Shown: one piece after another, positions 20,881-57,585 of the stretch
How the letters are laid out: the number at the start of each line of letters is the position of its first letter
Position numbering within the stretch: position 1 is the stretch's first letter
The notes under the pieces: generated by a model
Databases searched by the model: none
Told to the model about the DNA's origin: nothing
Seen by the model: only the letters and a program-made list of their open reading frames with translations
Program-made: the position numbers and the translations under genes
Sequence record: PP216084
Length of the DNA: 64,000 nucleotides
Reading direction: 5' to 3' (one strand)
Source of the DNA: Escherichia phage vB_EcoS_HZ_ZJUN2

Positions 20881-21648
20881 TTATTCAGCAGCCGCAGCTT
20901 TTGCATCCAGTTTAGCACGCTTAGCGGCACCATCATAGTCCTTAGCAACCAGACCACGACGAGACAGCATAGATTTAACACCACGCTCAGACTTACCAGT
21001 TTTCTCAGCGATCTCAGCAACAGTCATGTTAACCAGATCCAGACCTTCTAACAGATCTTCACGAGTTTTAGCACTTGAAGTTTCCTGTACCGGCATAGCA
21101 GCGATACGACCTTCACGAAGCAGGCTCAGAGCTTTACCACGGATCTGCTTAATATTGCGACCGAAGTGAGCAGCGATAGCTTCAATAGTAGCACCAGCAA
21201 CAACCTGATTAACAAAATCAGTTTCTTCATCCGGAGTGAAGGAACGAACAGCGGCAGCTTTTTCGGTTGGTTTAACAGAAGCGGTCATTTCCAGACTCAG
21301 GATCTTACCCTGTACCTGTTTAGCACCGAACTGACCACCAGCTACAGCAGCAGCGATTTCAGCATAGGTATACTGACCAGCATGAGCGTTCAGGAAATCA
21401 ACCAGCTCAGCTTCCTGCTCAGGAGTCCACGGGGATTTCTGTACTTCGTTAGCTTTCTGTACTTCAAAACCTTCTTTACGCAGTTTAGAGCCAACAGAGC
21501 GAGCAGTAACATCTTTGCCAGTTTCAGCAGCTAGTTCAGCAGCAATAGCAGCTACTTGTTCTTGAGAGATTACAGCAACACCCAGAGCAGTGGCTTTTGC
21601 TTTCAGAGACTCGGTTACACCTTCTACGTTCCAGTTCAGTTTAGACAT
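20881..21648 (-). CDS. DNA-binding protein with three helix-turn-helix-like repeats (D5-like by position)
   Basis: 255 aa, Ala-rich; three repeats of an …EIA…G…KQ.RGK.LS… module. Confidence 0.5.
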   Translation of the reverse strand: MSKLNWNVEGVTESLKAKATALGVAVISQEQVAAIAAELAAETGKDVTARSVGSKLRKEGFEVQKANEVQKSPWTPEQEAELVDFLNAHAGQYTYAEIAAAVAGGQFGAKQVQGKILSLEMTASVKPTEKAAAVRSFTPDEETDFVNQVVAGATIEAIAAHFGRNIKQIRGKALSLLREGRIAAMPVQETSSAKTREDLLEGLDLVNMTVAEIAEKTGKSERGVKSMLSRRGLVAKDYDGAAKRAKLDAKAAAAE

Positions 21649-22423
21649 TATTATTTTTCTCCAATAGTTCTTTAATCGACAGGATTTCTATCCCATTCGT
21701 TTCGGCTTTCTTATAAGATGAGGAAGAACGTTTTGATTCATCCTCACAGATTAGGTATTTGACGTCTTTGGTAACGGATTTCTTAACCGTATACCCTAGA
21801 CCTTCTAAATAGTTTGTTGCATCCGTTCTATTTGCAAAATCTTGCAAAGATCCGGTAATACATACCGCGATTCCATTTGGCTTGGCAACTAATTCATCCG
21901 TAGTGATAATATTAGCTTTAGTGCCCTTAATACCAGTTGAGAATTTCCACGGTAGTTCGATAACATCCTTGCCTTGTGGGGAATTTAGCCAGGCTTTGTA
22001 ATTTTCTCCAGCCTTGCCGTCAGCCTTCACATCATGGAAGCTAGTGCAATTTTGGGATAATTTCTTTGCTGCAACCTCTCCAATTAGAGGGATTCCTAAA
22101 GAACCGAGAACTGAACCAAAGTCAATGTCTCCGCGAACTTTAGTATTTAATTCGCTAATTAACTTAGCGGCAACCTTGCTACCCACGGCTCTAACCAAAT
22201 CTTCTTCGGTTAGGTAAAATAGTTCTGAAATCTTCGTCAGCTCCAGCTTCTCAATAGTTTTTGGGCCAAAGCCCTTTAACTTCATTTTTGAACAGAAGTT
22301 CTCAATTAACTTGCTTGATTGCGCTGGACAGTTGGACTTATTACGACAGAATAATTGTCCGTTGACAAGATCTAGCTTAGAACCACAAGAGGGACATTGT
22401 GTTGGAATTTCGATTTTCATCAA
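21641..22423 (-). CDS. ligB: NAD-dependent DNA ligase, C-terminal subunit (zinc finger/HhH/BRCT part)
   Basis: N-terminal Cys4 pattern CPSCGSKL…CRNKSNC; follows the adenylation-domain ORF. Confidence 0.7.
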   Translation of the reverse strand: MMKIEIPTQCPSCGSKLDLVNGQLFCRNKSNCPAQSSKLIENFCSKMKLKGFGPKTIEKLELTKISELFYLTEEDLVRAVGSKVAAKLISELNTKVRGDIDFGSVLGSLGIPLIGEVAAKKLSQNCTSFHDVKADGKAGENYKAWLNSPQGKDVIELPWKFSTGIKGTKANIITTDELVAKPNGIAVCITGSLQDFANRTDATNYLEGLGYTVKKSVTKDVKYLICEDESKRSSSSYKKAETNGIEILSIKELLEKNNNV

Positions 22424-26968: not shown

Positions 26969-27211
26969 TTACGATTCCTTGAGCAAAGAAGCAAGTTCAG
27001 CATAGACTTTATCTAACTCAAAGCCGATGCGAAGAGACACGTTTGTTTTCCGTTGTTTAAGTAACCACTCGGATATGTTAGGGATGCCAGCTAGTCTAGC
27101 AGGAACCACCCTACATAGCTTTTCCGAAGTATCATAAACAGGAACTTTACGTTCTTTTACTGGAAACTTCCTTGTTTCCCATTTTTTATTATTCACTGTC
27201 ATTTCTAGCAC
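26969..27211 (-). CDS. hypothetical protein
   Basis: 80-aa ORF. Confidence 0.4.
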   Translation of the reverse strand: MLEMTVNNKKWETRKFPVKERKVPVYDTSEKLCRVVPARLAGIPNISEWLLKQRKTNVSLRIGFELDKVYAELASLLKES

Positions 27212-29975
27212 CTAGCTCTGACATTGCTTCTTCTGCCATAGCCTTCTCTTCCTCTGTCATGAATTTGAAAGGAATTGGCATACACTCGATTTTACAATAG
27301 GTTCTGTACCAGTCTACGATATTCTCCGTGTTCATATCTTTACCAATACCCATCATACCAAGATACATTCTAGCATATTTTGGGTTAGCACTCTGGCCTG
27401 TTTTAAGGAAGAAATCCTTTTTCTTACCTTTTAGAGCTTCTATGAATGGTTTAATGGTTACATTTGAACACTTCTTAATGTCTTCCCAGAACATCTCGTG
27501 CATCTTATGAAAGAATGCAGCTCGATCATTTGGTTTATCTTTGATATATTGTTCAACATGCTCAACTGTTACATCTTTAATAGACTCAAGATGATAATAG
27601 CGAACAATAAGTAGTTTAGCTTCATACGCATCAGCATGACGTGGAGCACAATAATCCGGAGTTGAATGTAGAATAGCTTTGATTCGCTCTTCCGTATACT
27701 CTTTTCCTGCACCTTCGATAGTTCCCCAGCTTTCACTGAAAATATCAATAGTTGCACCCTGATCAAGCAAGTAATAGCGTAGAGTACTAGTATAGTTTCT
27801 AGATTCCAGCTCCCTGCGACGTGCATATAGTTGCTGTGCTAACTCCAGCCAACCCTCATCAATGTTATATTGCTCAGAACCTGCGGAGAATCCACTCGTA
27901 GATTTATCAATAAAATAATAAATGTTCTGAGCGCCACGGTCGCGCCTGATTGCTTGGAAACGCATGTTTGGCGCTTGGTTTGAGGTTCTAGTGATAACGA
28001 ATACGTTATCAAAATAGTTGAAGTCAACACCACTAGTTACGGATGGACTACATAATAAGCAATCAATTTGTTGGTCAATTAGCTCATTAGTTGTGTAATC
28101 CAGGATACGTCGAATATCTACATCAGACGTAGAGTTTGAATGGATTTCCTTAACTAACGCACCCGTATTACGACGCAATGCCATGCCCTTCTCATTCAGT
28201 TCATCAGGGCCACAATCAGATACCAGAATAGATTTCTCCCCCATCTCTAGAGAAGTCTGAAGTGCAACCCAAATACTGGATTCGTCAGGGAATTCATAAG
28301 CATGAGCTTTTGATAGCATCTTACGGTGATGATTATAAAATGCTACTGGTTTATCAAAATCAATTAGAGAACCATATGCTTCAATAGTTTCGGCACTAAT
28401 ATCACCATCTGATAGAATCACAGTTTTAGCTGTCATGAGGATGTCACGTAGAACTTGAATACATTCGCGACGTTGTTTAACAACTGGGGCGAATAATAGA
28501 TCATTCATTACAGCGTCACATTCATCAATAAAGATGGTGTCTATTTGACCAATAAAACTTTTGAACTTATGCAAAGAGTGAATAGTTGTGGACATACGAT
28601 CAATAGCCCCACGTTTAAAGTTGAGCATATCTACAGACTTATCATATTGTCCTGCGCTAAATTTCTTAGCGTTTGAAGATACCAGCGCTCTAGTATTTGT
28701 AACTGCTAAAAAGTTGCCAGGAAGAACACCTGCGTCCAGCCATTTAGTTACTGCCGTAGTTTTACCAGTACCAAGACTTGCCTTAACAAAGGTTATGTGG
28801 CCTTTTGGAGGCACAATGTTAATCTTCAGGTATGGAACTTCTGGTGGAGAATCCACTTCTAATTTCTTGAGTGGAACACCCTTCAGATTTAATGGAATCT
28901 CACGTTTAGAATTATTAACAAACGCTTTGAGAGCCTGCTTACGACCGTTATTAAAGTAATCTTGAATATTACGACTGTTATCTTTAGTTGCAATATATTC
29001 AGATAAAGCGGGTTTAATCTCACGTTCTAGCCATGCGAAATCAACACCATCCTCTAATGCTCTATGGTATAGTTTAGGGATAATACGCAAGTACACCCCA
29101 TCCTCAGCTTCTTCCAATTCGCTGATAGTTTCTTCTACTTTATCAGACGCGATCTTTTTGCCTTTAATTTGGTCAAGTAAGGAATAGAATTCCTCTTTGA
29201 ACTCCCCTCTAGTTGTTTCATAGTCAACCAGATTATTAGGCAAATTTACCTTCGAACCTTTAACATACACCAGACGTGGCTTACTCTCCGCTTTAAACGG
29301 ATCAACAATACCATCACTAAATAAAGGATCGGCAAAATAATGGAGCTGGACAGATGAATAATAAGCTAAGTCGGCAATGTCAAAACCGAATTTTTGCTTA
29401 CTACTATCATTGATAGACGTAAATAAGAACTTTAACTGACCTTGAGTTACCTTGACGTTAGATTCTAGCATTAAGTGCATTCGGATACCTGGTTTTAGGC
29501 CAGCCGAAGACGATGCATGAGCAATAAATCCTGCATCAAGAGGAAACATGTCCTCACTAATACTATTCAACATCTTAATAATGTGGCGGGCCATACCTAC
29601 AAGATTAAACTTGTCGTATCCACCGGTATCTAGGATACCATCCACGTCCATAGCAATAATATTGCTATGGTTGGATACATTAAAGTTACCTTTCTTACGC
29701 CGCACGTTATTTTTAGGTGCAAGACATCGACCTCGTACCGCAACGATATGAGGGTCTGACGTTAAACGTCTCATAAGAGGTAACATTTCGGCAAGGCTTT
29801 GCGGGTCATGCTCTTCTATTACATCAAATTTGAATGGCATAGAGGCTGGTTTACCTTCTGGATGCTCTTTCGAGAATCGCTTGGCAAAGGTATAATCTTC
29901 CGCTTTGATTTCTCGCCAAATACCTGTTGCTAAATCGCGAGAAAATCCGGCGTGACCTTGAAGAATAGAAAACAC
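27189..29975 (-). CDS. large P-loop NTPase, putative replication-initiation/origin-binding helicase
   Basis: 928 aa; Walker A SLGTGKTTAV, Walker B TIFIDECDAV. Confidence 0.6.
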   Translation of the reverse strand: MFSILQGHAGFSRDLATGIWREIKAEDYTFAKRFSKEHPEGKPASMPFKFDVIEEHDPQSLAEMLPLMRRLTSDPHIVAVRGRCLAPKNNVRRKKGNFNVSNHSNIIAMDVDGILDTGGYDKFNLVGMARHIIKMLNSISEDMFPLDAGFIAHASSSAGLKPGIRMHLMLESNVKVTQGQLKFLFTSINDSSKQKFGFDIADLAYYSSVQLHYFADPLFSDGIVDPFKAESKPRLVYVKGSKVNLPNNLVDYETTRGEFKEEFYSLLDQIKGKKIASDKVEETISELEEAEDGVYLRIIPKLYHRALEDGVDFAWLEREIKPALSEYIATKDNSRNIQDYFNNGRKQALKAFVNNSKREIPLNLKGVPLKKLEVDSPPEVPYLKINIVPPKGHITFVKASLGTGKTTAVTKWLDAGVLPGNFLAVTNTRALVSSNAKKFSAGQYDKSVDMLNFKRGAIDRMSTTIHSLHKFKSFIGQIDTIFIDECDAVMNDLLFAPVVKQRRECIQVLRDILMTAKTVILSDGDISAETIEAYGSLIDFDKPVAFYNHHRKMLSKAHAYEFPDESSIWVALQTSLEMGEKSILVSDCGPDELNEKGMALRRNTGALVKEIHSNSTSDVDIRRILDYTTNELIDQQIDCLLCSPSVTSGVDFNYFDNVFVITRTSNQAPNMRFQAIRRDRGAQNIYYFIDKSTSGFSAGSEQYNIDEGWLELAQQLYARRRELESRNYTSTLRYYLLDQGATIDIFSESWGTIEGAGKEYTEERIKAILHSTPDYCAPRHADAYEAKLLIVRYYHLESIKDVTVEHVEQYIKDKPNDRAAFFHKMHEMFWEDIKKCSNVTIKPFIEALKGKKKDFFLKTGQSANPKYARMYLGMMGIGKDMNTENIVDWYRTYCKIECMPIPFKFMTEEEKAMAEEAMSELGARNDSE

Positions 29976-30473
29976 AACAATACTCCTGTGTTGGTTAATC
30001 GAAAATCTTTTCTTTAGGACTATTCAGAAAGAATAGAACAACTATTACTACTATTTACGTAAACATCAATTATCATCAAGCAATATGAATAAGTTATCAT
30101 ATCTCAGTGCTGTGCTCTCTTCGCTCATATACAGAATAGAACCTAGGTCATTGGCCGCTAAGCCGATTCTATTTGTCCTCACTATCCTATTGGTAGGTGA
30201 CTACTGTACGTGCCGCCATTCGCTGCTCTTTTCGTTCGCACCCCCATATAAAGCTCTGCCTATATAACGAGCTAAATATGCACGGTTTGGATTTACCTTT
30301 CCGAATTCAGGGTACACAGATCACTTAATTGAAGATTAACTAATGCAATATAAACACTAGTAATAGTTAAAACAACCCTTAATGGGGCAGCCTAACTGTT
30401 CCGTATCGCGGATTGTAAACAAGAAAAATTAGCAAAATCAATTTTTACTAATGTCTCTCAATTCAATATAAAT

Positions 30474-30502
30474 ATTATATCAAGATTTTGGGCATCATGC
30501 AA
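30474..30502 (-). promoter_or_regulatory. T5-type promoter (minus strand), about 490 nt upstream of the NTPase gene
   Basis: Reverse complement TTGCAT - 17 bp - TATAAT followed by ATTTATATTGAATTGAGAG. Confidence 0.55.
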
Positions 30503-30593
30503 GTAAATTTTTCCCAAAGGTGCTATCAGTGTCTTTGAGCATAGAGAAAACCGAGCCAAAATGACTCGGTAATCAGAGTTCAGCTAATAAAAA

Positions 30594-30986
30594 TCATTTG
30601 TCATTTAGGCCTGGAACATAGATCCCAACACGGTTTAATTGTTCTTTAGCTTCTTTGAGAATATCTGGAGTGTATTCCCAAATATCATCTTCCACCTGTA
30701 AAAGATGGGGCGAACAACCGTCATCCGGCACACGACATATGGCCAAACCACGTGGATGGAATATAGAGAAGTTTAGGGCAACAATCAAGCCCATAGCAGA
30801 CAATTCATTCCAATCCAATTCCCATTCCCCGGCGTATCCAGACAGGAAAACACCAACACAGGGATCATCTGTTTGCTGCTCAGGAAAAGTGAAGGAGGCT
30901 TGTCTTACCCCCAACCAACGTTGTAGCAGCTTTTCCGCACGCTTCACCAAACTAGGGTCAATCTGACGCCAAAATACTTGTTCCAT
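30594..30986 (-). CDS. hypothetical protein, paralogue A of a tandem pair
   Basis: 130 aa; shares PC(V/I)G…W.EL..MGL..ALN…PGL pattern with 30996-31424. Confidence 0.5.
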   Translation of the reverse strand: MEQVFWRQIDPSLVKRAEKLLQRWLGVRQASFTFPEQQTDDPCVGVFLSGYAGEWELDWNELSAMGLIVALNFSIFHPRGLAICRVPDDGCSPHLLQVEDDIWEYTPDILKEAKEQLNRVGIYVPGLNDK

Positions 30987-30995
30987 TCTGCCTCC

Positions 30996-31424
30996 TTAAG
31001 CAGTTAAACCTGGGATCATATACCCGAAACGTCGAAGTTTCTGAATCCCCTCATTTACTTCTTCCGGTGAGTAAGACCAACCATAACGTTCATTAACTTG
31101 AAAACCAGGAGATTCACTAGTTTTATAGTTAACAACGAGGCGATGCTTAGCAGGCATAAACAGCTTATAGTTTAACGCAAAAACTAAGCCCATTTCATCT
31201 AACTCTTTCCAGCCGACAATCTCTTCAAGACCATCCTCTACCTGAACAATTAAACCAATACAGGGAGCCTCATCAATATCATCTTTAAAGGCAAAGGAGA
31301 TTTCGTTATTCTCACACCATATTTTCAAAGAGTTAATAGCCTCATTATACAGGCTAGCCGGGAGAGTACGCCAAAAGTTAACCAAAATTGGGTTAGCTTC
31401 TTTAGAGAATACATTATTGAACAT
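30996..31424 (-). CDS. hypothetical protein, paralogue B of a tandem pair
   Basis: 142 aa; see paralogue A. Confidence 0.5.
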   Translation of the reverse strand: MFNNVFSKEANPILVNFWRTLPASLYNEAINSLKIWCENNEISFAFKDDIDEAPCIGLIVQVEDGLEEIVGWKELDEMGLVFALNYKLFMPAKHRLVVNYKTSESPGFQVNERYGWSYSPEEVNEGIQKLRRFGYMIPGLTA

Positions 31425-31426
31425 AT

Positions 31427-31933
31427 TTACACCTTAAATTGCTGTAAGGATTTACACATTTCAAGATCTGGGCTAAATTCTAGCATATAGCTAACAGCTT
31501 TTAAATCTTGAAGATTTATCCCAGTCCTACCGTTGACTATAACCGTTGGATACTGATACATCATAGCACCCGCATCATCAAGCACACACCAATGTTTGAG
31601 CTTATGCTTTTCAACGAAGCGAAGAACAGAATTACCCCTAGATAATCCACCCCCAGTAAAATCCGTTGTACCAAGAAAACGATCGATAAGACCTAATCCG
31701 GTCATAATCCGAACGTTCTCCATCTCATTTCTAACAGAGAACCAAGATGATACTCCAACAATCATTATCGGAGAAAGACGAATAAAGTCCTGAAAAGCCT
31801 TGAGAAGCGGTTTGAAAACCCAGTCACTTCCAAAGAAAATCTTTTCATCATCAGGTGCATGATGGTGGGAGATGCTCGAATTGAGCACTCCATCAATGTC
31901 CAGAAAAATAATTGGAGTATTACTTATTTCCAT
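31427..31933 (-). CDS. HAD-superfamily hydrolase-like protein (possible nucleotidase/phosphatase)
   Basis: N-terminal FLDIDGVLN (HAD motif I, DxDG). Confidence 0.5.
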   Translation of the reverse strand: MEISNTPIIFLDIDGVLNSSISHHHAPDDEKIFFGSDWVFKPLLKAFQDFIRLSPIMIVGVSSWFSVRNEMENVRIMTGLGLIDRFLGTTDFTGGGLSRGNSVLRFVEKHKLKHWCVLDDAGAMMYQYPTVIVNGRTGINLQDLKAVSYMLEFSPDLEMCKSLQQFKV

Positions 31934-49731: not shown

Positions 49732-49954
49732 ATATTCATAAATTAGGGAACAGCGAGCCGATTACGCTGAATGCAGAATCCCAACCGGAGCGCATTGAAT
49801 AGAGTCGGTGGGTTAGTTGTAAAACTAGTACACAGGGGGCGGCAATCCCGGTTAGTGGCTAGAACGTGTAAAATGAGGCGTCTGAAACCTCTCCCCTAAA
49901 CTCTTCTCTAATTTATAAATAGTGGGGTGTGGAAATCACTTATGTAGTAACACT

Positions 49955-50026
49955 GCCGATCTAGTATAAACGGTATTATCAAGCCGTAACTGGTGGAAGA
50001 TGTAGGTTCGAATCCTACGATCGGTA
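49955..50026 (+). other. tRNA-like element with aberrant anticodon arm (possible pseudo-tRNA)
   Basis: 7-bp acceptor pairing GCCGATC/GATCGGT and perfect T-arm GTAGG-TTCGAAT-CCTAC, but no 5-bp anticodon stem with U33 and no encoded CCA. Confidence 0.3.
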
Positions 50027-50527
50027 AGAACTGGATAACTGGTGCTTTTAACGTAAAAGCTTCCGAGGTTAGTTGCGCACTGCCTAAACCACGCGGTAGT
50101 TGGTTCCAGACTAACCAACCAGTCTGCTGAATAGTTTTATTACGATTTAACTATGTCCAGGCTAAAGAAGAACTTTAGAAGGTATTCTAGGTAGTGAAGT
50201 TTTTCCTCCATATCGGAGTAGTTTTTCAAGCTACCAACAAAGTGGGAAATGCTGACATGAGAGATGTCACTAATGGTGCACAATAGCACAGGTAATTCGC
50301 GATAACTCCTGTTGAGTAGCAGCAAAAGGCGGGAAGTCATGACCCCAAGCCTAACCGAGTCCTCAATATACCGCAGGACATAACCACTAAGTCACCCTGA
50401 CTTAAACTGGAAAATAATAGACGTTACTGTATTTTGTCTTGAAATACTTAATGAGTGAGACTTATGACTCTCCCGGTATCGTCTGTATTTTTAAGAGTTT
50501 TTACGAGAGTTCTTAAAAATACTTAAA

Positions 50528-50602
50528 CGGGGTGTAGTCTAAGGGAGAGGCAGGAGTCTTCTAAATTCCTTTATGCAGGTTCGAATCCTGTCACCTCGGC
50601 CA
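50528..50602 (+). tRNA. tRNA-Arg (anticodon TCT)
   Basis: Hand-folded cloverleaf: acceptor CGGGGTG/CACCTCG, anticodon loop CTTCTAA, T-loop TTCGAAT, encoded CCA. Confidence 0.65.
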
Positions 50603-50636
50603 ATTTTATTAACTGTAACTAAAACAAAGGAAATAT

Positions 50637-51584
50637 ATGTTTGCTACTAAAAACACTAAAGAACTGACTTATGAGCAAAAATTGATGCGTAATATCAAAC
50701 GTTGGGGTATTGGTGTTGCAGTTGGTTTGGTAGGTTTAGTTCTGGCCCTTAACTCCTATACTGTGGTTCAAGACGGTACTGTTAAAACCCAGACTTTCCT
50801 GGGTAAAGTTGACCCTAGCCCAGTATTACCAGGCTTTCATATTGTAAATCCTTTTGCTTCTTTCGATACTTTTAGTACTAAAGATATTGCTGTAAAATTA
50901 GATAAACTTCAGGTTCCTAGCCAGGATAAGTTTAAATCCACTGTTGACCTGACTGTTATGTTGCAGTTTGATGGTTCTAAGGCACCGATCAACCGTATTA
51001 ATGCAGGTACTCAGGATCAGGCGTTAGACAAATATGTAACTGAAAAATTACTGTCTACCATCCGTGAGTTTGGTAAGTCTGTACCTAAAGCACAAGATTT
51101 GTTTGATGCTAAAATTCAAGCACAATTACAAACTGCAATTCAACAGGAAGTTGAAGAGTATGCACGCCCTTATGGTTACACAGTTAAGCAAGTGTTCCTT
51201 CAGGATATCACATTACCACCGGTAATTATGGAACAGGTACAGAATACCAAAGTTCGTGAAGAACAAGTTAATGCTGCGAAAGCTGAATTGGCTCGTGTTG
51301 AACAAGAAGCACAGCAGAAGGTTAAACAAGCAGAAGCAGATCGTGAAGCTCGTAACAACCAAGCTATTGCAAACGAACGTGATGCAGATGCTAAACTGTA
51401 TGCAGCTAAGAAAGAAGCCGAAGCTAACGCCGCTCTGCAACGTACTATTACTCCTGAGATGATTCGCTGGAAACAACTAGAAGTTGAAATGACTCGTGCT
51501 CAGAAGTATCAAGGTGGTGTGCCGCAAACAGTAGTTGGCACTGGGTACGATGGCCGGATGATTATGGATATGCGTAACAAGTAA
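50637..51584 (+). CDS. SPFH/band-7 (prohibitin-like) membrane protein
   Basis: 315 aa; N-terminal TM helix WGIGVAVGLVGLVLAL; Ala/Glu/Gln-rich coiled coil. Confidence 0.6.
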   Translation: MFATKNTKELTYEQKLMRNIKRWGIGVAVGLVGLVLALNSYTVVQDGTVKTQTFLGKVDPSPVLPGFHIVNPFASFDTFSTKDIAVKLDKLQVPSQDKFKSTVDLTVMLQFDGSKAPINRINAGTQDQALDKYVTEKLLSTIREFGKSVPKAQDLFDAKIQAQLQTAIQQEVEEYARPYGYTVKQVFLQDITLPPVIMEQVQNTKVREEQVNAAKAELARVEQEAQQKVKQAEADREARNNQAIANERDADAKLYAAKKEAEANAALQRTITPEMIRWKQLEVEMTRAQKYQGGVPQTVVGTGYDGRMIMDMRNK

Positions 51585-51608
51585 TTCCCACACGTAATAT
51601 TCGAAGTA

Positions 51609-51648
51609 AGCCCTGTGTTCCCTGGAGAGCGCAGGGCTTTTCTGTTTT
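51609..51648 (+). terminator. intrinsic terminator
   Basis: Stem AAGCCCTG/CAGGGCTT followed by TTTTCTGTTTT. Confidence 0.7.
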
Positions 51649-51810
51649 AAGGTAGAGGATAAGTGTGTCTCTTTGGTCACTCAGCTATGACAAATACTTT
51701 ACACTATATCACATTGAAAATCAAGTGGGGATAACAATTTTGGGGTCTATCCACTTACCTGCTACCATTAAGCATCCTGTTATTTTCCTCTAAAAAGTTA
51801 AAAAATTCAA

Positions 51811-51839
51811 TTGCTTGAATGCTAAATTCTCTGTATAAT
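51811..51839 (+). promoter_or_regulatory. T5-type promoter
   Basis: TTGCTT - 17 bp - TATAAT followed by ATATTTATAAATTTGAGAGAGG. Confidence 0.65.
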
Positions 51840-51869
51840 ATATTTATAAATTTGAGAGAGGAATCTAGT

Positions 51870-52388
51870 ATGACTGTTGATGAACTAACAGAACATCTCT
51901 TATCTAGAGGGTTTGATACAGATAAGTATCATTGCTGGTTAAGCCAGGAAGGATGGCTAACAGTCCCGTTGTATGACTTCTCTGGGATGTTGAGAGGCTA
52001 TCAAACTTATAATCCTTCTGCTCCAAAAGGTCATGGTAAGTGTCCCTTTGAAGCTAAATATTTTACTTATTCTACTACCCAGTGTGTATGGGGATTAGAA
52101 ACTCTCAATGGAGATGAAAAAGTAGTATTGATTGCTGAATCTGTATTTAAGGCAGTTGCGTTACATAACGCTGGTTATCCAGCCCTGGCAATGTTGGGTT
52201 CTTCCCCCGGAAAAGCATTATTAAAGCAATTGAAATTATTACCTTTTAAATTGGTAGCTGTAGGAGATAATGATCCTGCGGGTGAAAAATTTGCTAGAAA
52301 ATTAAACGGCTTTGTTTCTCCTGTAGATGTAGATGAGATGTCTACCGAAAACTTGAAAAATTTTCTTGCTATGAAGCTAAATTTCTAA
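51870..52388 (+). CDS. small Toprim-domain protein
   Basis: Start at the ATG behind GAGAGAGGAATC; VVLIAESVFKAVAL…VAVGDNDPAGEK Toprim acidic motifs. Confidence 0.55.
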   Translation: MTVDELTEHLLSRGFDTDKYHCWLSQEGWLTVPLYDFSGMLRGYQTYNPSAPKGHGKCPFEAKYFTYSTTQCVWGLETLNGDEKVVLIAESVFKAVALHNAGYPALAMLGSSPGKALLKQLKLLPFKLVAVGDNDPAGEKFARKLNGFVSPVDVDEMSTENLKNFLAMKLNF

Positions 52389-52394
52389 TATAAT
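52366..52394 (+). promoter_or_regulatory. T5-type promoter overlapping the 3' end of the Toprim gene
   Basis: TTGCTA - 17 bp - TATAAT followed by ATATTTATAAATTCGGAAG. Confidence 0.6.
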
Positions 52395-52408
52395 ATATTT
52401 ATAAATTC

Positions 52409-52497
52409 GGAAGAATAGCATAACGGTATTGCAGCAGATTGCTAATCTGTCGGTTTGAAATATAGCCTTGTGGGTTCGATTCCCACTTCTTCCGCCA
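52409..52497 (+). tRNA. tRNA-Ser (anticodon GCT), long variable arm
   Basis: Acceptor GGAAGAA/TTCTTCC, anticodon loop TTGCTAA, 19-nt variable arm, T-loop TTCGATT, discriminator G, CCA. Confidence 0.7.
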
Positions 52498-52503
52498 AAT
52501 TCT

Positions 52504-52581
52504 GGTTCTCAAGCTCATATGGTATGAGCACCCAGCTCATAACTGGAAGGTACGTAGGTTCGAATCCTCGGGGAGCCACCA
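52504..52581 (+). tRNA. tRNA-Met-like (anticodon CAT)
   Basis: Acceptor GGTTCTC/GGGAGCC, D-stem GCTC/GAGC, anticodon loop CTCATAA, CCA; T-stem has only 3 clean pairs. Confidence 0.55.
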
Positions 52582-52604
52582 ACTTAATTAGAAAGTAGTA
52601 AACT

Positions 52605-53288
52605 ATGAGAACTGATATACTCGATAGAAAGGAAGAAATAACTCAGTGGATAGCTCAGGGAAAATCTAAAGCAGAGATAGCAAGAATGCTATCTTGTGCC
52701 TCGAATACTCTAGAAGCATATTTAGGAAAACTAGGGATAATAATTACTCCTACTAATAGGCAGCAGGATAATAAATATAAGTCTGCAACAGAGTATTTAT
52801 ATAATGGCAGTCCTATCTCTTCCTATAGACTAAAGAATAAAATTCTTAACGAGGGACTAAAACCACATAAATGTGAGGGTTGCGGACTAGAAAGCTGGTT
52901 AAATAAACCAATTCCCTTAGAACTCGAGCATAAAGATGGAGACCACTATAATAATGAGTGGGACAACTTAGCCCTCCTATGCCCAAATTGTCATGCACTA
53001 ACACCTACTCATGCAGGCAAAAATATTGGCAGGTATACAGAAAGGGTGGTAAATACATGTGCTATTTGTCATTGCGAAATTAGCCCAAAGGCAACGCACT
53101 GTAAATCATGTACCCCGAAAGAACTAACTATAAATCCAGATATTACTGCGGAGCAAATAGAGTATTGGGTATCTAAGTATTCCTGGGTTCGTGCCTCCAA
53201 AGAATTAGGATTATCTGACACGGGGTTAAGAAAAAGATATACGTCCTTAACAGGAAAAGATCCTAAAAGTATTAAGAAAAGTAGGTAG
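52605..53288 (+). CDS. HNH homing endonuclease with N-terminal HTH and shared C-terminal module
   Basis: CEGCG…ELEHKDGDHYNNEWDNLALLCPNCHA; C-terminal ELGLSDTGLRKRYTSL also present in 55476-56057. Confidence 0.7.
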   Translation: MRTDILDRKEEITQWIAQGKSKAEIARMLSCASNTLEAYLGKLGIIITPTNRQQDNKYKSATEYLYNGSPISSYRLKNKILNEGLKPHKCEGCGLESWLNKPIPLELEHKDGDHYNNEWDNLALLCPNCHALTPTHAGKNIGRYTERVVNTCAICHCEISPKATHCKSCTPKELTINPDITAEQIEYWVSKYSWVRASKELGLSDTGLRKRYTSLTGKDPKSIKKSR

Positions 53289-53317
53289 TATAATTAACAC
53301 CAAATTAAGGAAATAAG

Positions 53318-53488
53318 ATGTATAGACATCCACCTCCGCCAACACGTCGTTCTAGAGAAGTTATTCTCATGGAATTGACTAAAAACTTCAAGGCAACTCT
53401 TGAAGATAGAGATCTAGGCACGGATGAAGATATTGATTTTATTTGTAGACTATTAAAGATGAAACTGGAGAAACAACATGGCTAATCC
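53318..53488 (+). CDS. small hypothetical protein
   Basis: 56-aa ORF with AAGGAAATAAG RBS. Confidence 0.35.
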
Positions 53489-53684
53489 TGAAATTACCGC
53501 ACAACGTTTCATGCTTAAAGGCATGATTGCTGAGGCAGGTATAACTCAAGAGGTTGCAGATTTTCATAAGCAATTTCTTGACATTATAACTCTAGCTAAA
53601 GAGACTGGAGAAAAAGAACACGGTGCAGCAATTATGGCTATAACTCTTATTAGTCTAGACTTGGCAGAAGAATCTGGAGTTTAG
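53478..53684 (+). CDS. hypothetical protein
   Basis: 68-aa ORF. Confidence 0.45.
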   Translation: MANPEITAQRFMLKGMIAEAGITQEVADFHKQFLDIITLAKETGEKEHGAAIMAITLISLDLAEESGV

Positions 53685-53714
53685 CTCCTCCGAACAGAAT
53701 TTTTAAAAATGTAC

Positions 53715-53744
53715 TTGCCTTTTGCTTTAAATTTCTGGTATAAT
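53715..53744 (+). promoter_or_regulatory. T5-type promoter
   Basis: TTGCCT - 18 bp - TATAAT followed by AGTTATATAAATTGATGAAGG. Confidence 0.6.
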
Positions 53745-53774
53745 AGTTATATAAATTGATGAAGGAGTTAACGA

Positions 53775-54050
53775 ATGCAAAATCGTGTTATAGCAACTGG
53801 TATTGAAAGTGCAATCTGTAAATCCTGGGAAGGCTGGGAAGGTGAGATTGAATGGCTTTATTTCTACGATGTAGAACTTCTGCCGGAAATTAAAGCTAAA
53901 TGTGTTGAAGCTGGCATGGCTCCAGATGCAAAAGCTGATATTGATATTTCAATGTCTGAACTTAAAGGTCGTGTAATTACTGTTAGTGATGGGGGCGAAG
54001 AAGTTTTCGAACTTCCATTCTCCTTAACTGTCGCTCCTAAGTTCGACTAA
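53775..54050 (+). CDS. hypothetical protein
   Basis: 91-aa ORF with GAAGGAG RBS. Confidence 0.5.
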   Translation: MQNRVIATGIESAICKSWEGWEGEIEWLYFYDVELLPEIKAKCVEAGMAPDAKADIDISMSELKGRVITVSDGGEEVFELPFSLTVAPKFD

Positions 54051-54086
54051 CTAATACAGCACTGAGCAAGTTCTTTAAAATTTGAC

Positions 54087-54115
54087 TTGCTCAGTGCCTT
54101 AAAACTTGGTATAAT
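54087..54115 (+). promoter_or_regulatory. T5-type promoter whose -35 lies in the 3' arm of a 12-bp hairpin (54059-54097)
   Basis: TTGCTC - 17 bp - TATAAT; inverted repeat AGCACTGAGCAAG…CTTGCTCAGTGC. Confidence 0.55.
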
Positions 54116-54249
54116 AGTTATCTAATTTGGAAAGTTCTTTTTAAGGTAGTTCTTACTTTAGCAGAGTAAACTTTCGGCAGATGGCGGCAGCCACTTTACC
54201 GATATTCCATAGTCAGTGCCGCAAACACTGGCTACCTTAAAGAGAATTT

Positions 54250-54337
54250 GGGCGTTTATTCCGTAAGTGGTAGCGGAGGGGAATGTAAATCCCTGGTCAT
54301 TGCGACTCGAGTGGTTCGACTCCATTAACGCCCACCA
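54250..54337 (+). tRNA. tRNA-Tyr (anticodon GTA), long variable arm
   Basis: Acceptor GGGCGTT/AACGCCC, anticodon stem GGGGA/TCCCT, loop ATGTAAA, CCA. Confidence 0.65.
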
Positions 54338-54345
54338 AATTTAAT

Positions 54346-54420
54346 GCACCTATCGTCTAATGGTTAGGACATCAGGATTTCAATCTGAGAATCGGAGTTC
54401 AATTCTCCGTGGGTGTACCA
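54346..54420 (+). tRNA. tRNA-Glu (anticodon TTC)
   Basis: Acceptor GCACCTA/TGGGTGT, anticodon loop ATTTCAA, T-arm CGGAG-TTCAATT-CTCCG, CCA. Confidence 0.65.
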
Positions 54421-54428
54421 ATTTCTGC

Positions 54429-54505
54429 ATTCCTAGAGTGTTACTGGACAGCATGTCGGTCTCCAAAACCGTACGGTCTAGGTTCGAGTCCTAGTAGGTT
54501 TGCCA
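54429..54505 (+). tRNA. tRNA-Trp (anticodon CCA), two U-U mismatches in the acceptor stem
   Basis: Anticodon loop CTCCAAA, T-arm CTAGG-TTCGAGT-CCTAG, CCA; acceptor ATTCCTA/TAGGTTT pairs at 5 of 7 positions. Confidence 0.5.
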
Positions 54506-54511
54506 AAATTT

Positions 54512-54586
54512 GCACCTTTAGCTGAGATGGATTAGCGCTTGCCTGAAGAGCTTGAAAGGTTGGATCGTTACCAACGGGGTGCACCA
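54512..54586 (+). tRNA. tRNA-Phe (anticodon GAA)
   Basis: Acceptor GCACCTT/GGGGTGC, D-stem GCTG/TAGC, anticodon loop CTGAAGA, CCA; anticodon stem has two U-U pairs, T-loop ATCGTTA is atypical. Confidence 0.55.
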
Positions 54587-54603
54587 AATTGAAGGAGCTG
54601 CTG

Positions 54604-54876
54604 ATGCATCCTGAAAACTTCTTTATTTACTGCGCGGATAAGTCGCTGAAACGTAGAATTAACAAAGTCTATCATTATCGTGCTAGTCAACAGCCTTATG
54701 TATACGCTTTTGACGGTGATCACATTCCACTAGAACAATTATCTTGTGATTACATGATATTGAAGAACTTTGACGAGACGAAGATCTCAAGCGTTTATAA
54801 TCGACAGAATCCATTAACGTGGAAATATAAGAAGAAAAAGAAAGGCATCAAATTCTTAAAAAATATAGTTGCTTAG
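54604..54876 (+). CDS. hypothetical protein
   Basis: ATG at 54604 behind GAAGGAG, directly after tRNA-Phe. Confidence 0.45.
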   Translation: MHPENFFIYCADKSLKRRINKVYHYRASQQPYVYAFDGDHIPLEQLSCDYMILKNFDETKISSVYNRQNPLTWKYKKKKKGIKFLKNIVA

Positions 54877-54897
54877 TTTCCAAAAGTTCTGTATAAT
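54869..54897 (+). promoter_or_regulatory. T5-type promoter
   Basis: TTGCTT - 17 bp - TATAAT followed by AATTACATAAATTGAACTGGAG. Confidence 0.6.
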
Positions 54898-54945
54898 AAT
54901 TACATAAATTGAACTGGAGAAGCAACATGATAGAACAAGATAAAT

Positions 54946-55021
54946 CGACCGTTGGCTGAATGGCTTAGGCGAAGGATTGCAAATCCTTTTTATGTGAGTT
55001 CAAATCTCATGCGGTCGTCCA
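54946..55021 (+). tRNA. tRNA-Cys (anticodon GCA)
   Basis: Acceptor CGACCGT/GCGGTCG, anticodon stem AAGGA/TCCTT, loop TTGCAAA, T-arm GTGAG-TTCAAAT-CTCAT, CCA. Confidence 0.65.
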
Positions 55022-55023
55022 AT

Positions 55024-55170
55024 TTGCTGAAAGAATTGTTAAATCAATTCAGGCACGCGTAGGAACACTGTCTCCGTAATTGAAAGATGAGGCACGGTTT
55101 GGAGAGGTATGCCGCTACACGCTACGGTGCTAACTCCGTCTAGGTGAAAATCCTAGTCAGCAATGTAAAT
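55024..55170 (+). other. ~147-nt tRNA-like/structured RNA candidate closed by an acceptor-like helix
   Basis: 5' TTGCTGA pairs perfectly with 3' TCAGCAA; internal hairpins GAATTG…CAATTC and CTAGG-TGAAAAT-CCTAG; no ORF. Confidence 0.3.
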
Positions 55171-55173
55171 TTA

Positions 55174-55259
55174 GGGTCGTTGGCTGAACGGTTTAAGCGC
55201 CGGACTGTTAATCCGTATCCGCAAGGATAAAGTAGGTTCAACTCCTACACGGCCCGCCA
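55174..55259 (+). tRNA. tRNA-Asn (anticodon GTT) with an unusually long variable arm
   Basis: Acceptor GGGTCGT/ACGGCCC, anticodon arm CGGA-CTGTTAA-TCCG, 15-nt variable stem-loop ATCC-GCAA-GGAT, T-arm GTAGG-TTCAACT-CCTAC, discriminator G, CCA. Confidence 0.6.
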
Positions 55260-55286
55260 AATTCACTAACAACTGAGGAAATAGAT

Positions 55287-55472
55287 ATGACAACTCGTGC
55301 AATTGCTCGACTAGAAGCTGATCGTGATAATATGATTAATAATATTAAGGTTCGTGGTAATATTATTAAGGCTCTGAAAGCTGAACTTCTTGAGGAACTT
55401 CAAGGTCAAGTAGAGCGTCGTGAAGCTCTAAAAGAGGTTGAGGAAGCTATCGAAAAACTCAAGGCTGAATAA
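55287..55472 (+). CDS. hypothetical coiled-coil protein
   Basis: 61-aa ORF with GAGGAAATAG RBS. Confidence 0.5.
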   Translation: MTTRAIARLEADRDNMINNIKVRGNIIKALKAELLEELQGQVERREALKEVEEAIEKLKAE

Positions 55473-55475
55473 ATT

Positions 55476-56057
55476 ATGCACGGAATATCCTTACCCATTC
55501 CAGGGTTTGAGGAGTACTTAGTAAGTTTGGATGGGTTAGTATTTAGTATCAAATCAAACAAAATACTAACCCCAATAACCAGTAATTACGGATACTTATC
55601 TATACGTCTCCATAAAAATGGTCAACAGAGAAATACCGGTGTACATAGGATTTTAGCATGTGCATTTAAGAAATTACCAAGTCTAGACTCTGAACTAGAA
55701 GTTGACCATATTAACACAGACATTACTTATTGGGGTCTTAATAACTTACAAGTGCTCACAAAAGAGCAGCATCTAGAAAAGACTTTAAAAGATAAAGGAT
55801 TTAGTAAACTAAACCATGATAATTGTTGTAAGGATTGTGGTAAAGCTATTTCTTTAAAAGCTGAAAAATGTCAGGAGTGCTCTTCACATAAACCAAAAGA
55901 TATCTCTATAACTAAAGAAATAATCGAGGTTACAGTAAGAGAGCTAGGCTGGTCAGGTGCAGGGAGAAAGTTAAGTTATTCAGATAATGGGTTGCGTAAA
56001 AGATACACTTCTTTAGGAGGCAATCCTAAAGAACTTAAAAAGTTAAAGGTACTATAG
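55476..56057 (+). CDS. HNH homing endonuclease
   Basis: …YGYLSIRL…HRILACAF…EVDHINTDITYWGLNNLQVLTKEQH; C-terminal ELGWSGAGRKLSYSDNGLRKRYTSL module. Confidence 0.7.
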   Translation: MHGISLPIPGFEEYLVSLDGLVFSIKSNKILTPITSNYGYLSIRLHKNGQQRNTGVHRILACAFKKLPSLDSELEVDHINTDITYWGLNNLQVLTKEQHLEKTLKDKGFSKLNHDNCCKDCGKAISLKAEKCQECSSHKPKDISITKEIIEVTVRELGWSGAGRKLSYSDNGLRKRYTSLGGNPKELKKLKVL

Positions 56058-56122
56058 TCTAACGGTTAGGATACTCCCCTGTCACGGGAGAGGTAGGGTT
56101 TCGATTACCCTTAGTACCGCCA
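56048..56122 (+). tRNA. tRNA-Asp (anticodon GTC)
   Basis: Acceptor GGTACTA/TAGTACC, anticodon stem CTCCC/GGGAG, loop CTGTCAC, T-arm AGGGT-TTCGATT-ACCCT, CCA; 5' end overlaps the last codons of the HNH gene. Confidence 0.7.
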
Positions 56123-56139
56123 AATAAGGTAGGTTAGCT

Positions 56140-56298
56140 ATGGAACGTAGGGAGTTTACTCCAGAAGAGATAGAGCAGATAAAAGAATCTGCTATGAAAA
56201 ATGCTAGAATATCTCTGTCACTGGAAGGTATCATTATTAGTGATGTAAACTTTGAAAAAATCAAAGCCATAGCTGATGAACTGGAAAAAGTAATTTAA
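56140..56298 (+). CDS. small hypothetical protein
   Basis: 52-aa ORF with AAGGTAGG RBS, between tRNA-Asp and tRNA-Lys. Confidence 0.4.
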   Translation: MERREFTPEEIEQIKESAMKNARISLSLEGIIISDVNFEKIKAIADELEKVI

Positions 56299-56299
56299 T

Positions 56300-56375
56300 A
56301 CATCCATAGCTCAATGGTTAGAGCTACCGCCTCTTAAGCGGAGGGTTCTAGGTTCAAGTCCTAGTGGGTGTACCA
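56300..56375 (+). tRNA. tRNA-Lys (anticodon CTT)
   Basis: Acceptor ACATCCA/TGGGTGT, D-stem GCTC/GAGC, anticodon loop CTCTTAA, T-arm CTAGG-TTCAAGT-CCTAG, CCA. Confidence 0.6.
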
Positions 56376-56401
56376 AATTAAACTAGCACGAGAAATATGC
56401 T

Positions 56402-56749
56402 ATGATTAATGCTAAAGAAGAATTGTTACTTGCCCTAAAGAATACTAATTCTGAAGTTAAGTGTATTAAGATAGAATTCGGTTATTATGGGGATAAAGAA
56501 GTTTGGGTATTACCCGTAGGTTATACAGAAAAAGATATTGAAGATTTTCTAAATAATCTAGACTTTAAATATGATTCTGGTTATGGTGGGCAATTGCTTT
56601 ATGGTAACGTGTGGTTTACTGATGGAACTTGGTTAGAACGCGGTGAATACGACGGTTCTGAATGGTGGGAATATAAGGCTACGCCAGCAATCCCAGAAGA
56701 ATGCCGAACAATTAATGGTGAAGTAGATCATACATTACTACTAAATTAA
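56402..56749 (+). CDS. hypothetical protein
   Basis: 115-aa ORF between tRNA-Lys and tRNA-Pro. Confidence 0.5.
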   Translation: MINAKEELLLALKNTNSEVKCIKIEFGYYGDKEVWVLPVGYTEKDIEDFLNNLDFKYDSGYGGQLLYGNVWFTDGTWLERGEYDGSEWWEYKATPAIPEECRTINGEVDHTLLLN

Positions 56750-56759
56750 TAAAAATTAA

Positions 56760-56836
56760 CAGTGCGTAGCTCAGCTTGGTAGAGCGTCTGCTTTGGGAGC
56801 AGAATGTCGCAGGTTCGAGTCCTGCCGCACTGACCA
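56760..56836 (+). tRNA. tRNA-Pro (anticodon TGG)
   Basis: Acceptor CAGTGCG/CGCACTG, D-stem GCTC/GAGC, anticodon stem TCTGC/GCAGA, loop TTTGGGA, CCA. Confidence 0.7.
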
Positions 56837-56936
56837 AACAATTGCGGGTGGGAGGCATAGAGTTCTTCTTAGTCTCATAAGCTAAGTAAGTCCAGGGCAG
56901 TACTGGAACCCGCTACCAATTTCAAGAAAAACTCAT

Positions 56937-56965
56937 TTGCTTAATGCTTAATTTCTTGTTATAAT
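56937..56965 (+). promoter_or_regulatory. T5-type promoter driving an ORF-free ~0.3-kb leader and the Ala/Leu tRNAs
   Basis: TTGCTT - 17 bp - TATAAT followed by ATTTATATAAATTGATGCG. Confidence 0.65.
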
Positions 56966-56971
56966 ATTTAT

Positions 56972-57297: not shown

Positions 57298-57371
57298 GGG
57301 GATATAGTTTAATGGTAGAACATCTGCTTTGCACGCAGAAGACGAGGGTTCAACTCCCTCTTTCTCCACCA
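57298..57371 (+). tRNA. tRNA-Ala (anticodon TGC) with G3-U70
   Basis: Acceptor GGGGATA/TTTCTCC with the G3-U70 wobble typical of alanine tRNAs; anticodon stem TCTGC/GCAGA, loop TTTGCAC, CCA. Confidence 0.65.
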
Positions 57372-57376
57372 AATTC

Positions 57377-57461: not shown

Positions 57462-57585
57462 AATTTGATGGTCAGAGTAAATTAAACCTACTATCTCGGT
57501 TGAGCTGTTTTAATGGGTTCGAATCCCAGCGAGGCGTAACTGCCTGGTGTGATAGAGGCATCATTCCACTAATATTGGAAAACTA

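Follow-up and report, generated by a model that had tools for sequence, protein, structure and literature searches.

Structured RNA between a promoter and a start codon, with conserved helices and a ribosome-binding site held in a hairpin, is known from the operators of phage T4 genes 32 and 43 and from ribosomal-protein and riboswitch leaders. Promoter-driven structured transcripts of several hundred nucleotides are also found beside replication functions, as in ColE1 RNA II and the T4 R-loop origins oriF(uvsY) and oriG(34). A third group comprises the large, intricate, covariation-supported and phage-associated RNAs GOLLD, ROOL, HEARO, OLE and raiA, and a fourth parallel is the phage-encoded pRNA of phi29, which is structured, driven by an early promoter and built of helices that covary at low sequence identity. 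Here we describe an element that resembles each of these systems in part, the untranslated leader of the replication gene obp/D2 in Escherichia phage vB_EcoS_HZ_ZJUN2 (record PP216084), of which a stretch of 64,000 nucleotides, called the window below, was analysed. The element appears to be a new, large and covariation-supported structured leader RNA that has escaped description; it matches no described RNA family and encodes no conserved protein. We regard it as highly probable that a functional structured RNA is specified by the minus strand at this locus, and as likely that it takes the form of a structured leader of ~490 nt, read through into obp and probably acting in cis. As with T4 genes 32 and 43, the leader precedes a replication gene; unlike the T4 operators, it is about ten times larger and contains a multi-junction core of ~330 nt with invariant loops.

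The window belongs to a T5-like phage, with T5, BF23 and SP01 97–98% identical to it. Megablast searches with positions 29900-30650 matched 523 phage records, the best ones at 97–98.5% identity, and all matches listed were T5-like (T5, BF23, SP01, SPC35-like and others). The locus corresponds to a 618-bp intergenic gap (29976-30593) between a DUF7415 gene and the obp/D2 helicase gene, all on the minus strand. Its position is kept in more than 500 T5-like phage records and it is unannotated in most of the records listed, while in two T5 GenBank records it carries a rho-independent terminator and a ‘putative early promoter T5P32’ as its only annotations, the remaining ~470 bp being blank. A preliminary description had confined the leader region to 29976-30473; the true gap is larger, because the terminator of the upstream operon also falls inside it. 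The transcription unit comprises the following features:

30594-30986, minus strand: DUF7415 gene (130 amino acids), the 5' neighbour of the gap
30550-30570, minus strand: intrinsic terminator of the DUF7415 operon, a hairpin (ACCGAGTCATTTTGGCTCGGT) with a T-rich tail behind it, found by a terminator scan; T5 and BF23 records mark the same feature as a rho-independent terminator
30474-30502, minus strand: sigma-70 promoter, with −35 TTGCAT (30502-30497), a 17-nt spacer and −10 TATAAT (30479-30474)
29976-30467, minus strand: the whole predicted untranslated obp/D2 mRNA leader, ~490 nt, delimited on the basis of no conserved open reading frame (ORF), no terminator, a fold with z = −3.0 and no Rfam match
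27189-29975, minus strand: obp/D2 gene (928 amino acids), a superfamily 2 (SF2) helicase with a Herpes_ori_bp domain (Pfam PF02399, PHROG 3712, T5 annotations)

The promoter (TTGCAT-17-TATAAT, minus strand, 30502-30474), already noted upstream of the region in the preliminary description, is near-consensus and coincides with the early promoter T5P32 annotated in T5; a simple promoter scan had missed it and listed instead a weaker site (9/12) at 30441-30412. The same promoter was found by a regular-expression scan at the same place in 33 related loci, about 490–800 nt upstream of obp, and it is kept in more distant relatives. Judging from the position of the −10 motif, transcription would start near 30467. 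On the minus strand, no intrinsic-terminator-like site was detected by scanning between the promoter and obp, and relatives show the same layout. Hence the predicted leader occupies the interval between promoter and start codon (obp starts at 29975), on the same strand and uninterrupted by a terminator. The product of the downstream gene is annotated in T5 as ‘replication origin binding protein’ and carries a Walker A motif at residues 399-406; D2 has been characterised biochemically by Wong et al. as a bipolar SF2 helicase (PMC3632103).

For comparison, 33 loci were fetched through the obp protein and eleven more were taken from GenBank and IMG/VR. The leaders fall into six types from phages of Escherichia/Salmonella, Yersinia, Klebsiella and Pectobacterium: besides the T5 type and type C, the second large group (e.g. 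L014-L024), there are the distant types of Yersinia phage phiR2-01, of Klebsiella phages Sugarland and IME260, of Pectobacterium phage DU_PP_V and of Pectobacterium phage My1. The minimum free energy (MFE) of the transcript, that is, the minus-sense RNA, was −130.4 kcal/mol (z = −3.0 against shuffled sequence), while that of the plus-sense RNA was −98.6 kcal/mol (z = −1.9), 32 kcal/mol worse. A common fold emerged for the six types, consisting of H1, H2, the long-range helix P2, P3, two three-way junctions (P4 and Pv), Px2 and Py. In the window its parts, together with the hairpins that follow the core, are:

30421-30459, minus strand: H1, 5'-terminal 16-bp stem-loop (MFE fold; compensatory stems in the Pectobacterium and Klebsiella types)
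30459-30454 / 30426-30421, minus strand: H1a, GAGAGA/UUUCUU
30452-30443 / 30437-30428, minus strand: H1b, AUUAGUAAAA/UUUUGCUAAU
30373-30415, minus strand: H2, with stem CAAUCC/GGGUUG (30415-30410 / 30378-30373)
30040-30368, minus strand: core domain closed by P2, ~330 nt
30368-30358 / 30050-30040, minus strand: P2, long-range closing helix AACUAUUACUA/UAGUAAUAGUU, inverted repeat I1 (RNAalifold on a MAFFT alignment)
30107-30324, minus strand: P3 domain
30324-30322 / 30109-30107, minus strand: P3a, GUG/CAC
30319-30315 / 30114-30110, minus strand: P3b, CUGUG/CACAG
30239-30314, minus strand: P4 junction, with stem UACCC/GGGUG (30314-30310 / 30243-30239; manual comparison and constrained folds)
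30303-30283, minus strand: P4a, hairpin with a GNRA-like loop, inside P4
30279-30246, minus strand: P4b, hairpin inside P4
30129-30209, minus strand: Pv, three-way junction enclosing Pw and Px, with stem GUACAG/CUGUAU (30209-30204 / 30134-30129; covariance model and RNAalifold)
30200-30179, minus strand: Pw, hairpin
30173-30165 / 30143-30135, minus strand: Px, AAUAGAAUC/GGUUCUAUU
30153-30164, minus strand: Px2, 3-bp stem GGC/GCC closing the hexaloop UUAGCG (30161-30156)
30083-30102, minus strand: Py, hairpin AUAUGA/UCAUAU (RNAalifold)
30020-30036, minus strand: tail hairpin CUAUUC-UUUCU-GAAUAG, directly 3' of P2 (folds)
29971-29992, minus strand: translation-initiation hairpin AACACAG/UUGUGUU (MFE folds)

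The helices are kept across the six types by compensatory substitutions. Double changes affect 12 of the 17 pairs of H1, and a 5' hairpin can be seen by eye at the place of H1 in the Providencia leader. The stem of H2 covaries (CCGAGCAU/AUGCUUGG in the Klebsiella type) around a 21-nt loop, ACGGAACAGUUAGGCUGCCCC (30404-30384), that is near-invariant in all six types. P2 is 100% paired, with double changes in 10 of its 14 pairs. In P3, all eight pairs are 100% paired and seven show double changes, to which a within-type compensation from U-A to C-G is added; P3b reads CUGUG/CACAG in the T5 type, CUGCG/CGCAG in type C, CCAUA/UAUGG in phiR2-01, CUACA/UGUAG in the Pectobacterium type and CUAGA/UCUAG in the Klebsiella type. 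The 2-nt bulge that splits P3a from P3b (AU, 30321-30320) is AU in five types and a 2–3-nt bulge in My1. Double changes occur in four of the five pairs of P4 and, within types, in the Pv junction. Px appears across the types as AAUAGAAUC/GGUUCUAUU, CAAAUC/GAUUUG, AUUGAGG/CCUCAAT, GUGCGGG/CCUGCAC, AUACG/CGUAU and CCACAU/GUGUGG. The segment C-UUAGCG-G of Px2 is invariant in all six types and recurs in Providencia and Proteus phages, and the Px2 stem covaries (GAC/GUC, AGC/GCU, UGC/GCG). All six pairs of Py have double changes, and the junction before it, CUGAGAU (30107-30101), is GAUGA-like in other types. Downstream of the core, the tail hairpin has compensatory variants recognised by eye: CUAUC/GAUAG in the Klebsiella leaders, CUUUCC/GGAAAG in those of Pectobacterium phages and CCUG/CAGG in those of Providencia phages. 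The translation-initiation hairpin holds part of the Shine-Dalgarno (SD) sequence AGGAG (29987-29983) and the GUG start codon (29975-29973), and where it reads CAC/GUG the Klebsiella type has CAU/AUG. In five types, 55–64 nt separate P2 from the start codon. Pairings of a P4b–Py kissing loop and of the H2 loop with the Px loop were also considered and set aside; they are plausible in some types and fail in My1 and others.

The support for these helices was quantified in two alignments. A manual structural alignment of 33 distinct leaders of the six types, covering 79 pairs, gave 99.6% canonical pairs, a figure which overstates the support because the alignment was fitted to the structure, and double changes in 60 of the 79; column shuffles reduced these values to 83% and 24 pairs, and sliding the 3' partner by 1–3 columns left 39–52%. 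Within the T5 type, where the alignment is unambiguous, the substitutions in the defined helices comprised five double compensatory changes, two of G-U type and two disruptions, both from U-A to C·A. When a covariance model was made from T5-type leaders only, its matches in the other types fell at the right position, though their scores were weak. Once rebuilt with the T5, phiR2-01 and C types as seed, the model recovered the non-seed Klebsiella type at the expected place (E = 4e-7 and 7e-7), as well as the non-seed My1 (E = 0.017) and DU_PP_V (E = 0.5), also at the expected positions. In the resulting model alignment, 93.4% of cells were paired, compared with 63.1% after shuffling and 36–43% after sliding; double changes were present in 26 of 30 pairs, and the covariation score was 0.75 versus 0.23. 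None of 500 shuffles reached the observed values. RNAalifold predicted Pv, Pw, Px, Px2 and Py on this alignment, with 25 of 28 pairs compensated, and when given eight whole leaders aligned simply with MAFFT it returned P2, both parts of P3 with the 2-nt bulge between them, Px, Px2 and Py. The structure is thus maintained by compensatory substitutions on the transcript strand. Of the roles that the preliminary description had proposed for this DNA, a structured 5' untranslated region is strongly supported by the conserved upstream promoter, the lack of a terminator before obp and the helices that covary across six types.

The strand on which pairing is conserved also bears on another proposed role, a replication-origin-like region. 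In the helices of the manual alignment, G-U cells outnumber A-C cells by 215 to 5, which together with the better minus-sense fold indicates that the conserved structure resides on the strand transcribed from the promoter. An origin in double-stranded DNA recognised by the obp protein, of the herpesvirus oriS/UL9 kind or of the iteron kind, or another DNA-level signal, would agree with the Herpes_ori_bp domain of the gene product and with the A/T-rich flanks around a GC-richer centre. That block, reported earlier, is real (GC fraction 0.455 at 30100-30299 versus ~0.32–0.36 in the flanks, 29900-30199 and 30300-30599). A further point in its favour is the plus-strand octamer GTTCGCAC (30234-30241), which resembles the UL9 box I sequence, CGTTCGCACTT. 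What is conserved, however, is base pairing and not sequence, and an excess of G-U over A-C is sensible for one strand only. The octamer occurs at chance frequency (14 of 100 shuffles gave at least two matches) and the leaders of the C, Klebsiella and Pectobacterium types lack it, though obp is conserved there; the UL9-box idea (CGTTCGCAC, plus strand) was consequently dropped, as a single chance-level octamer not kept across types. A herpesvirus-type origin would contain at least two inverted UL9 boxes around an A/T spacer, kept together with the binding protein, and the gap holds one partial box at chance level. Repeat analysis of the gap revealed no iterons, no tandem repeats and no direct-repeat families beyond short chance matches; no DnaA boxes were found in the gap, so that an iteron/DnaA-box-type origin was not recognised there either. 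Cumulative GC skew falls steadily through 30 kb without a turn, and composition and skew of the gap are no more anomalous than those of neighbouring genes. Altogether, the origin-like interpretation is not supported by the skew and repeat analysis, and we consider an origin at the DNA level very improbable.

Two side observations concern these scans. The only skew turn in the 64-kb window, a cumulative GC-skew minimum, lies at 36–38 kb, at the switch from minus- to plus-strand genes. Two more exact copies of CTTAGCGG (one as GCTTAGCGGC) were located at 20919-20928 and 22163-22170 on the plus strand, in a region of minus-strand genes; three copies against about one expected are not significant, as 10 of 100 shuffles reach at least three.

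A small protein gene, or several, could be envisaged from the 60-amino-acid plus-strand ORF and several ORFs of 20–43 amino acids. The stretch 29976-30473 is indeed as ORF-poor as had been claimed: its sole ORF of at least 60 amino acids is 30085-30267 on the plus strand, none of that size occurs on the minus strand, and the others measure only 20–43 amino acids on both strands (20–38 on the minus strand). No ORF is common to the leader types, whose sets of ORFs of at least 30 amino acids are entirely different across the six types, and the 60-amino-acid ORF is already shortened to 38 in a relative whose leader is 93% identical. Decaying or mobile DNA without RNA function, similar to a miniature inverted-repeat transposable element (MITE), might seem to be indicated by a core that is flanked by an 18-nt inverted repeat and swapped as a unit, and by a nearby optional 97-nt insert with an 8-bp direct repeat in some phages. 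The element is, however, single-copy in each genome and hyperconserved within types, and at least five internal helices that covary, together with invariant loops, are left unexplained by inverted-repeat mobile DNA. A MITE or mobile cassette was rejected on these grounds and because scans met the pattern nowhere but at the obp locus; coding or mobile DNA is, in our judgement, extremely improbable. Comparison with relatives, which the preliminary description had suggested as a check and in which a conserved protein or an unstructured region would have spoken against its proposal, disclosed neither: there is no shared ORF across the six types, and one common fold with covarying helices unites them.

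The pattern of sequence conservation is peculiar. Within the T5 group the leader (30030-30450) is 99–100% identical, as against 84–97% in flanking coding DNA. In type C, positions 30361-30480 remain at 96–100% identity, while ~300 nt (30060-30360) drop to 21–59%. Distant types keep only islands of sequence, namely ACGGAACAGUUAGGCUGCCCC, GCUUAGCGGC and a few motifs at junctions. When the P2-enclosed cores of the six types are compared, identities are 0.60–0.70, versus 0.59 for shuffled sequence under the same scoring, and core length is steady at 291–313 nt in all types. T5 and C types agree at 100% of the 99 nt that precede the core, and their obp proteins share 93% identity; with near-identical flanks and diverged cores, the core behaves as a replaceable cassette of conserved shape. 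A specific affinity of the C-type core to the Pectobacterium cores was considered and abandoned, since the identity matrix shows all cores to be about equally diverged. The leader is thus unusual in size and complexity, in its near-random divergence at constant shape and in its cassette-like replacement.

A role of the leader in cis is suggested by its position alone: P2 joins the 5' end to the ribosome-binding region and no terminator precedes obp, which makes action in cis the most likely. Host RNA polymerase would transcribe the minus strand from the conserved early promoter through the leader into obp. Closure of the core by P2 would then bring the 5' module (H1 and H2) and the ribosome-binding region side by side, and the folded leader could set the stability and/or the translation of the mRNA for the obp initiator-helicase. 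H1 has the form of a 5' stabiliser hairpin, and the invariant loops might serve as docking sites for a protein or small-molecule partner to which the leader possibly responds. RNAalifold also proposed an alternative pairing of UUCUUG in the H1a 3' strand (30426-30421) with the SD region CAGGAG (29988-29983), which would make a switch and is a lead only. A riboswitch would combine a conserved aptamer and a ligand with mutually exclusive pairings; here the ribosome-binding site and start codon lie in a hairpin, and the candidate H1-strand/SD pairing comes from RNAalifold without double compensatory support. Our confidence in the cis-regulatory mechanism taken on its own is tentative, falling a little short of an even bet.

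Several observations weigh against a structured leader that governs obp. The manual alignment was fitted to the structure, and the one made with the covariance model is in turn biased in favour of that model. Confidence is lowest for P4, which can pair in a second register in the T5 and phiR2-01 types. The H1/SD switch pairing shows no double compensatory change at all, and no alternative pairing is supported by covariation. The promoter, the start of transcription and the continuation of the transcript into obp rest on prediction or on GenBank annotation. The core has been exchanged independently of obp. Vibrio phage D254 has an obp homologue without this RNA, preceded by an unrelated 239-amino-acid ORF of no known family (L041:773-1492), and a distant AT-rich contig (L204) likewise carries an obp homologue without it, with only a short A/T-rich spacer. 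Finally, Proteus phage RP7 has a second promoter of full consensus (12/12) 36 nt before obp (L038:1435-1464), and Pectobacterium phage DU_PP_V a promoter-like site (10/12) between the RNA and obp (L027:2405-2433).

These extra promoters imply that obp may not depend on the leader, which would favour an independent function of the RNA. If the RNA is non-coding, stand-alone and trans-acting, its functional unit would be the P2-closed core, either by itself or joined to H1 and H2, and the promoter would simply be shared with obp; the core may act as a scaffold, as a decoy for a defence or host factor or as a ribozyme-like RNA, and may be cut from the leader. A small RNA, the remaining role proposed in the preliminary description, is a possibility of this kind; the structured part is large, measuring ~430 nt, and is predicted to continue into obp. 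The behaviour of the core as an autonomous cassette, replaced between phages with identical flanks, agrees with this, as do its size, multi-junction fold and GNRA-like and invariant loops, which are typical of globular RNAs and not of simple operators. On the other hand, neither a terminator nor a recognisable processing signal lies between core and obp, the element always stands just before obp, at a conserved distance, the window contains one copy of it, and pattern scans of viral and metagenome contigs place it only in T5-like phage DNA. The pRNA of phi29 is a free RNA of ~120–174 nt encoded at the genome end, with a different fold and a role in DNA packaging, whereas the obp leader is predicted to be read through into obp. 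A trans-acting RNA is a possibility that we regard as doubtful.

The nearness of a long RNA to a putative initiator gene raises a further alternative, a transcript-primed origin like ColE1 RNA II or T4 oriF/oriG, in which a persistent RNA–DNA hybrid would prime replication or load the D2 helicase. The leader adjoins obp at about 48% of the genome in T5, My1 and PR1, and a strong early promoter is here coupled to a long structured RNA similar in size to ColE1 RNA II. To our knowledge, the T5 origin has never been mapped at sequence level; electron-microscopic work by Bourguignon et al. in 1976 is said to have placed the first origin near the centre of the T5 genome. RNA II-like priming would suit this neighbourhood and mid-genome position, without sequence support and in conflict with data from recombitron editing of T5. 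Unlike ColE1 RNA II, the leader has no antisense promoter of RNA I type, as no plus-strand promoter-like site was found at 29500-31000, and it shows no G-rich or C-rich runs that would form the hybrid; the steady skew at 30 kb and the ordinary composition of the gap speak against such an origin too. The exchange of cores between phages whose obp is 93% identical further argues against a tightly matched initiator–origin pair. In the recombitron experiments, strand bias indicates dominant unidirectional replication from one genome end, which contrasts with an old electron-microscopic report of multiple internal origins (PMC10055335). We therefore rate a transcript-primed origin here as quite improbable.

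A bolder interpretation would make the P2-closed core a new class of large globular phage RNA with its own function at the start of T5 replication. As a pre-primer, or as an RNA that loads the helicase, it might define the origin of T5; or else it might be a ribozyme or scaffold RNA that binds a phage or host factor through its invariant loops, UUAGCG and ACGGAACAGUUAGGCUGCCCC. Core swapping between near-identical phages would then reflect selection on that interaction. We consider this interpretation unlikely, and favour the cis-acting structured leader.

Searches of known families and of wider sequence collections underline the novelty and the narrow distribution of the element. Against Rfam 15 (4227 models, among them group I and II introns, RNase P, tmRNA, 6S, T-box and riboswitches), the region 29000-31500 gave at E ≤ 10 only three chance-level matches of 15–17 bits, none plausible: one at the promoter/terminator end, a second covering ~25 nt next to the ribosome-binding site and a third beyond the limits of the gap. 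Eight relatives of six genera yielded no Rfam match at E ≤ 1. The leader thereby differs from ribosomal-protein and riboswitch leaders, none of whose Rfam families it matches, and the models of GOLLD, ROOL, HEARO, OLE and raiA likewise gave no score at these thresholds; GOLLD and ROOL are larger, and the obp leader is fixed 5' of a single gene in one phage family. By-eye resemblances to a group I intron, a T-box, RNase P and CsrA sites were discarded, having no Rfam match and resting on motifs not present in all types. No description of the element was found in Rfam, in GenBank annotations or in the literature searched (T5 origin mapping, T5 transcriptomes, RNA at this locus). A scan of IMG/VR viral contigs for the H2-loop motif returned 120 stretches, of which those lacking the second motif were unrelated, one other sequence accounting for most of them; when metagenome contigs were scanned for both motifs, eight true T5-like matches and three by chance were obtained, with no new type or context. 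In these scans the element occurred only in T5-like phage DNA and only before obp. Longer leaders (about 615–770 nt) are present in Providencia phages PR1 and PSTCR5 and Proteus phage RP7, in which the Px/Px2 hairpin with its UUAGCG loop is recognisable by eye; PR1 by eye also keeps H1, P2 and the tail hairpin. Covariance models R1-R3 did not detect the Providencia, Proteus or Vibrio leaders, save for the Px/Px2 hairpin in PR1 and PSTCR5 (E about 1).

T5 has long served as a model phage, and phages of its kind find wide use in therapy and biocontrol; even so, the element is blank in most of the records listed among more than 500 deposited genomes and has no Rfam family. Should the leader control D2/obp, it would be the first identified regulatory input into the initiation of T5 replication, and an unusually large and complex one. 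Should the RNA work on its own, it would be a tractable, genetically accessible addition to the few large structured phage RNAs, and could make directly testable where and how T5 starts replication. As six types fold alike at near-random identity, the RNA is also a good subject for structure determination.

Some features of the leader and its surroundings were noted in passing. The Vibrio Demerecviridae phages pVp-1 (L039:700-1416) and Bennett (L040:704-1338) have obp preceded by a strong promoter and an ORF-poor leader of ~600 nt, with the first ~130 nt kept between genera, a fold z of −2.4 and no detectable homology to the enterobacterial RNA. The optional insert of ~97 nt lies between H1 and H2 (insertion point 30421-30415; L037:1047-1143, L017, L024, L031), is flanked by the 8-bp direct repeat TTTTTCTT and contains an 8-bp hairpin of its own; it is present in 51 of ~527 GenBank T5-like records (T5, C and phiR2-01 types), always in single copy, and absent from the window.

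Directly upstream of the leader, two tandem paralogues (30594-30986, 130 amino acids, and 30996-31424, 142 amino acids) both belong to DUF7415 / PHROG 2502, and the relatives L013, L033 and L034 carry a strongly diverged DUF7415 copy (73% nucleotide identity) beside a T5-type leader. On the other side, T5 has the HNH homing-endonuclease gene hegI after obp, which is lacking in the PP216084 window and in BF23, a typical presence/absence polymorphism of homing endonucleases; in the window, obp (ending at 27189) is directly followed by an 80-amino-acid ORF of PHROG 5291 (26969-27211). Farther away, 21 transfer RNA (tRNA) genes are clustered at 49954-60123 on the plus strand, as expected of a T5-like phage, and one tRNA-Ser among them has the unusual anticodon ACT according to ARAGORN.

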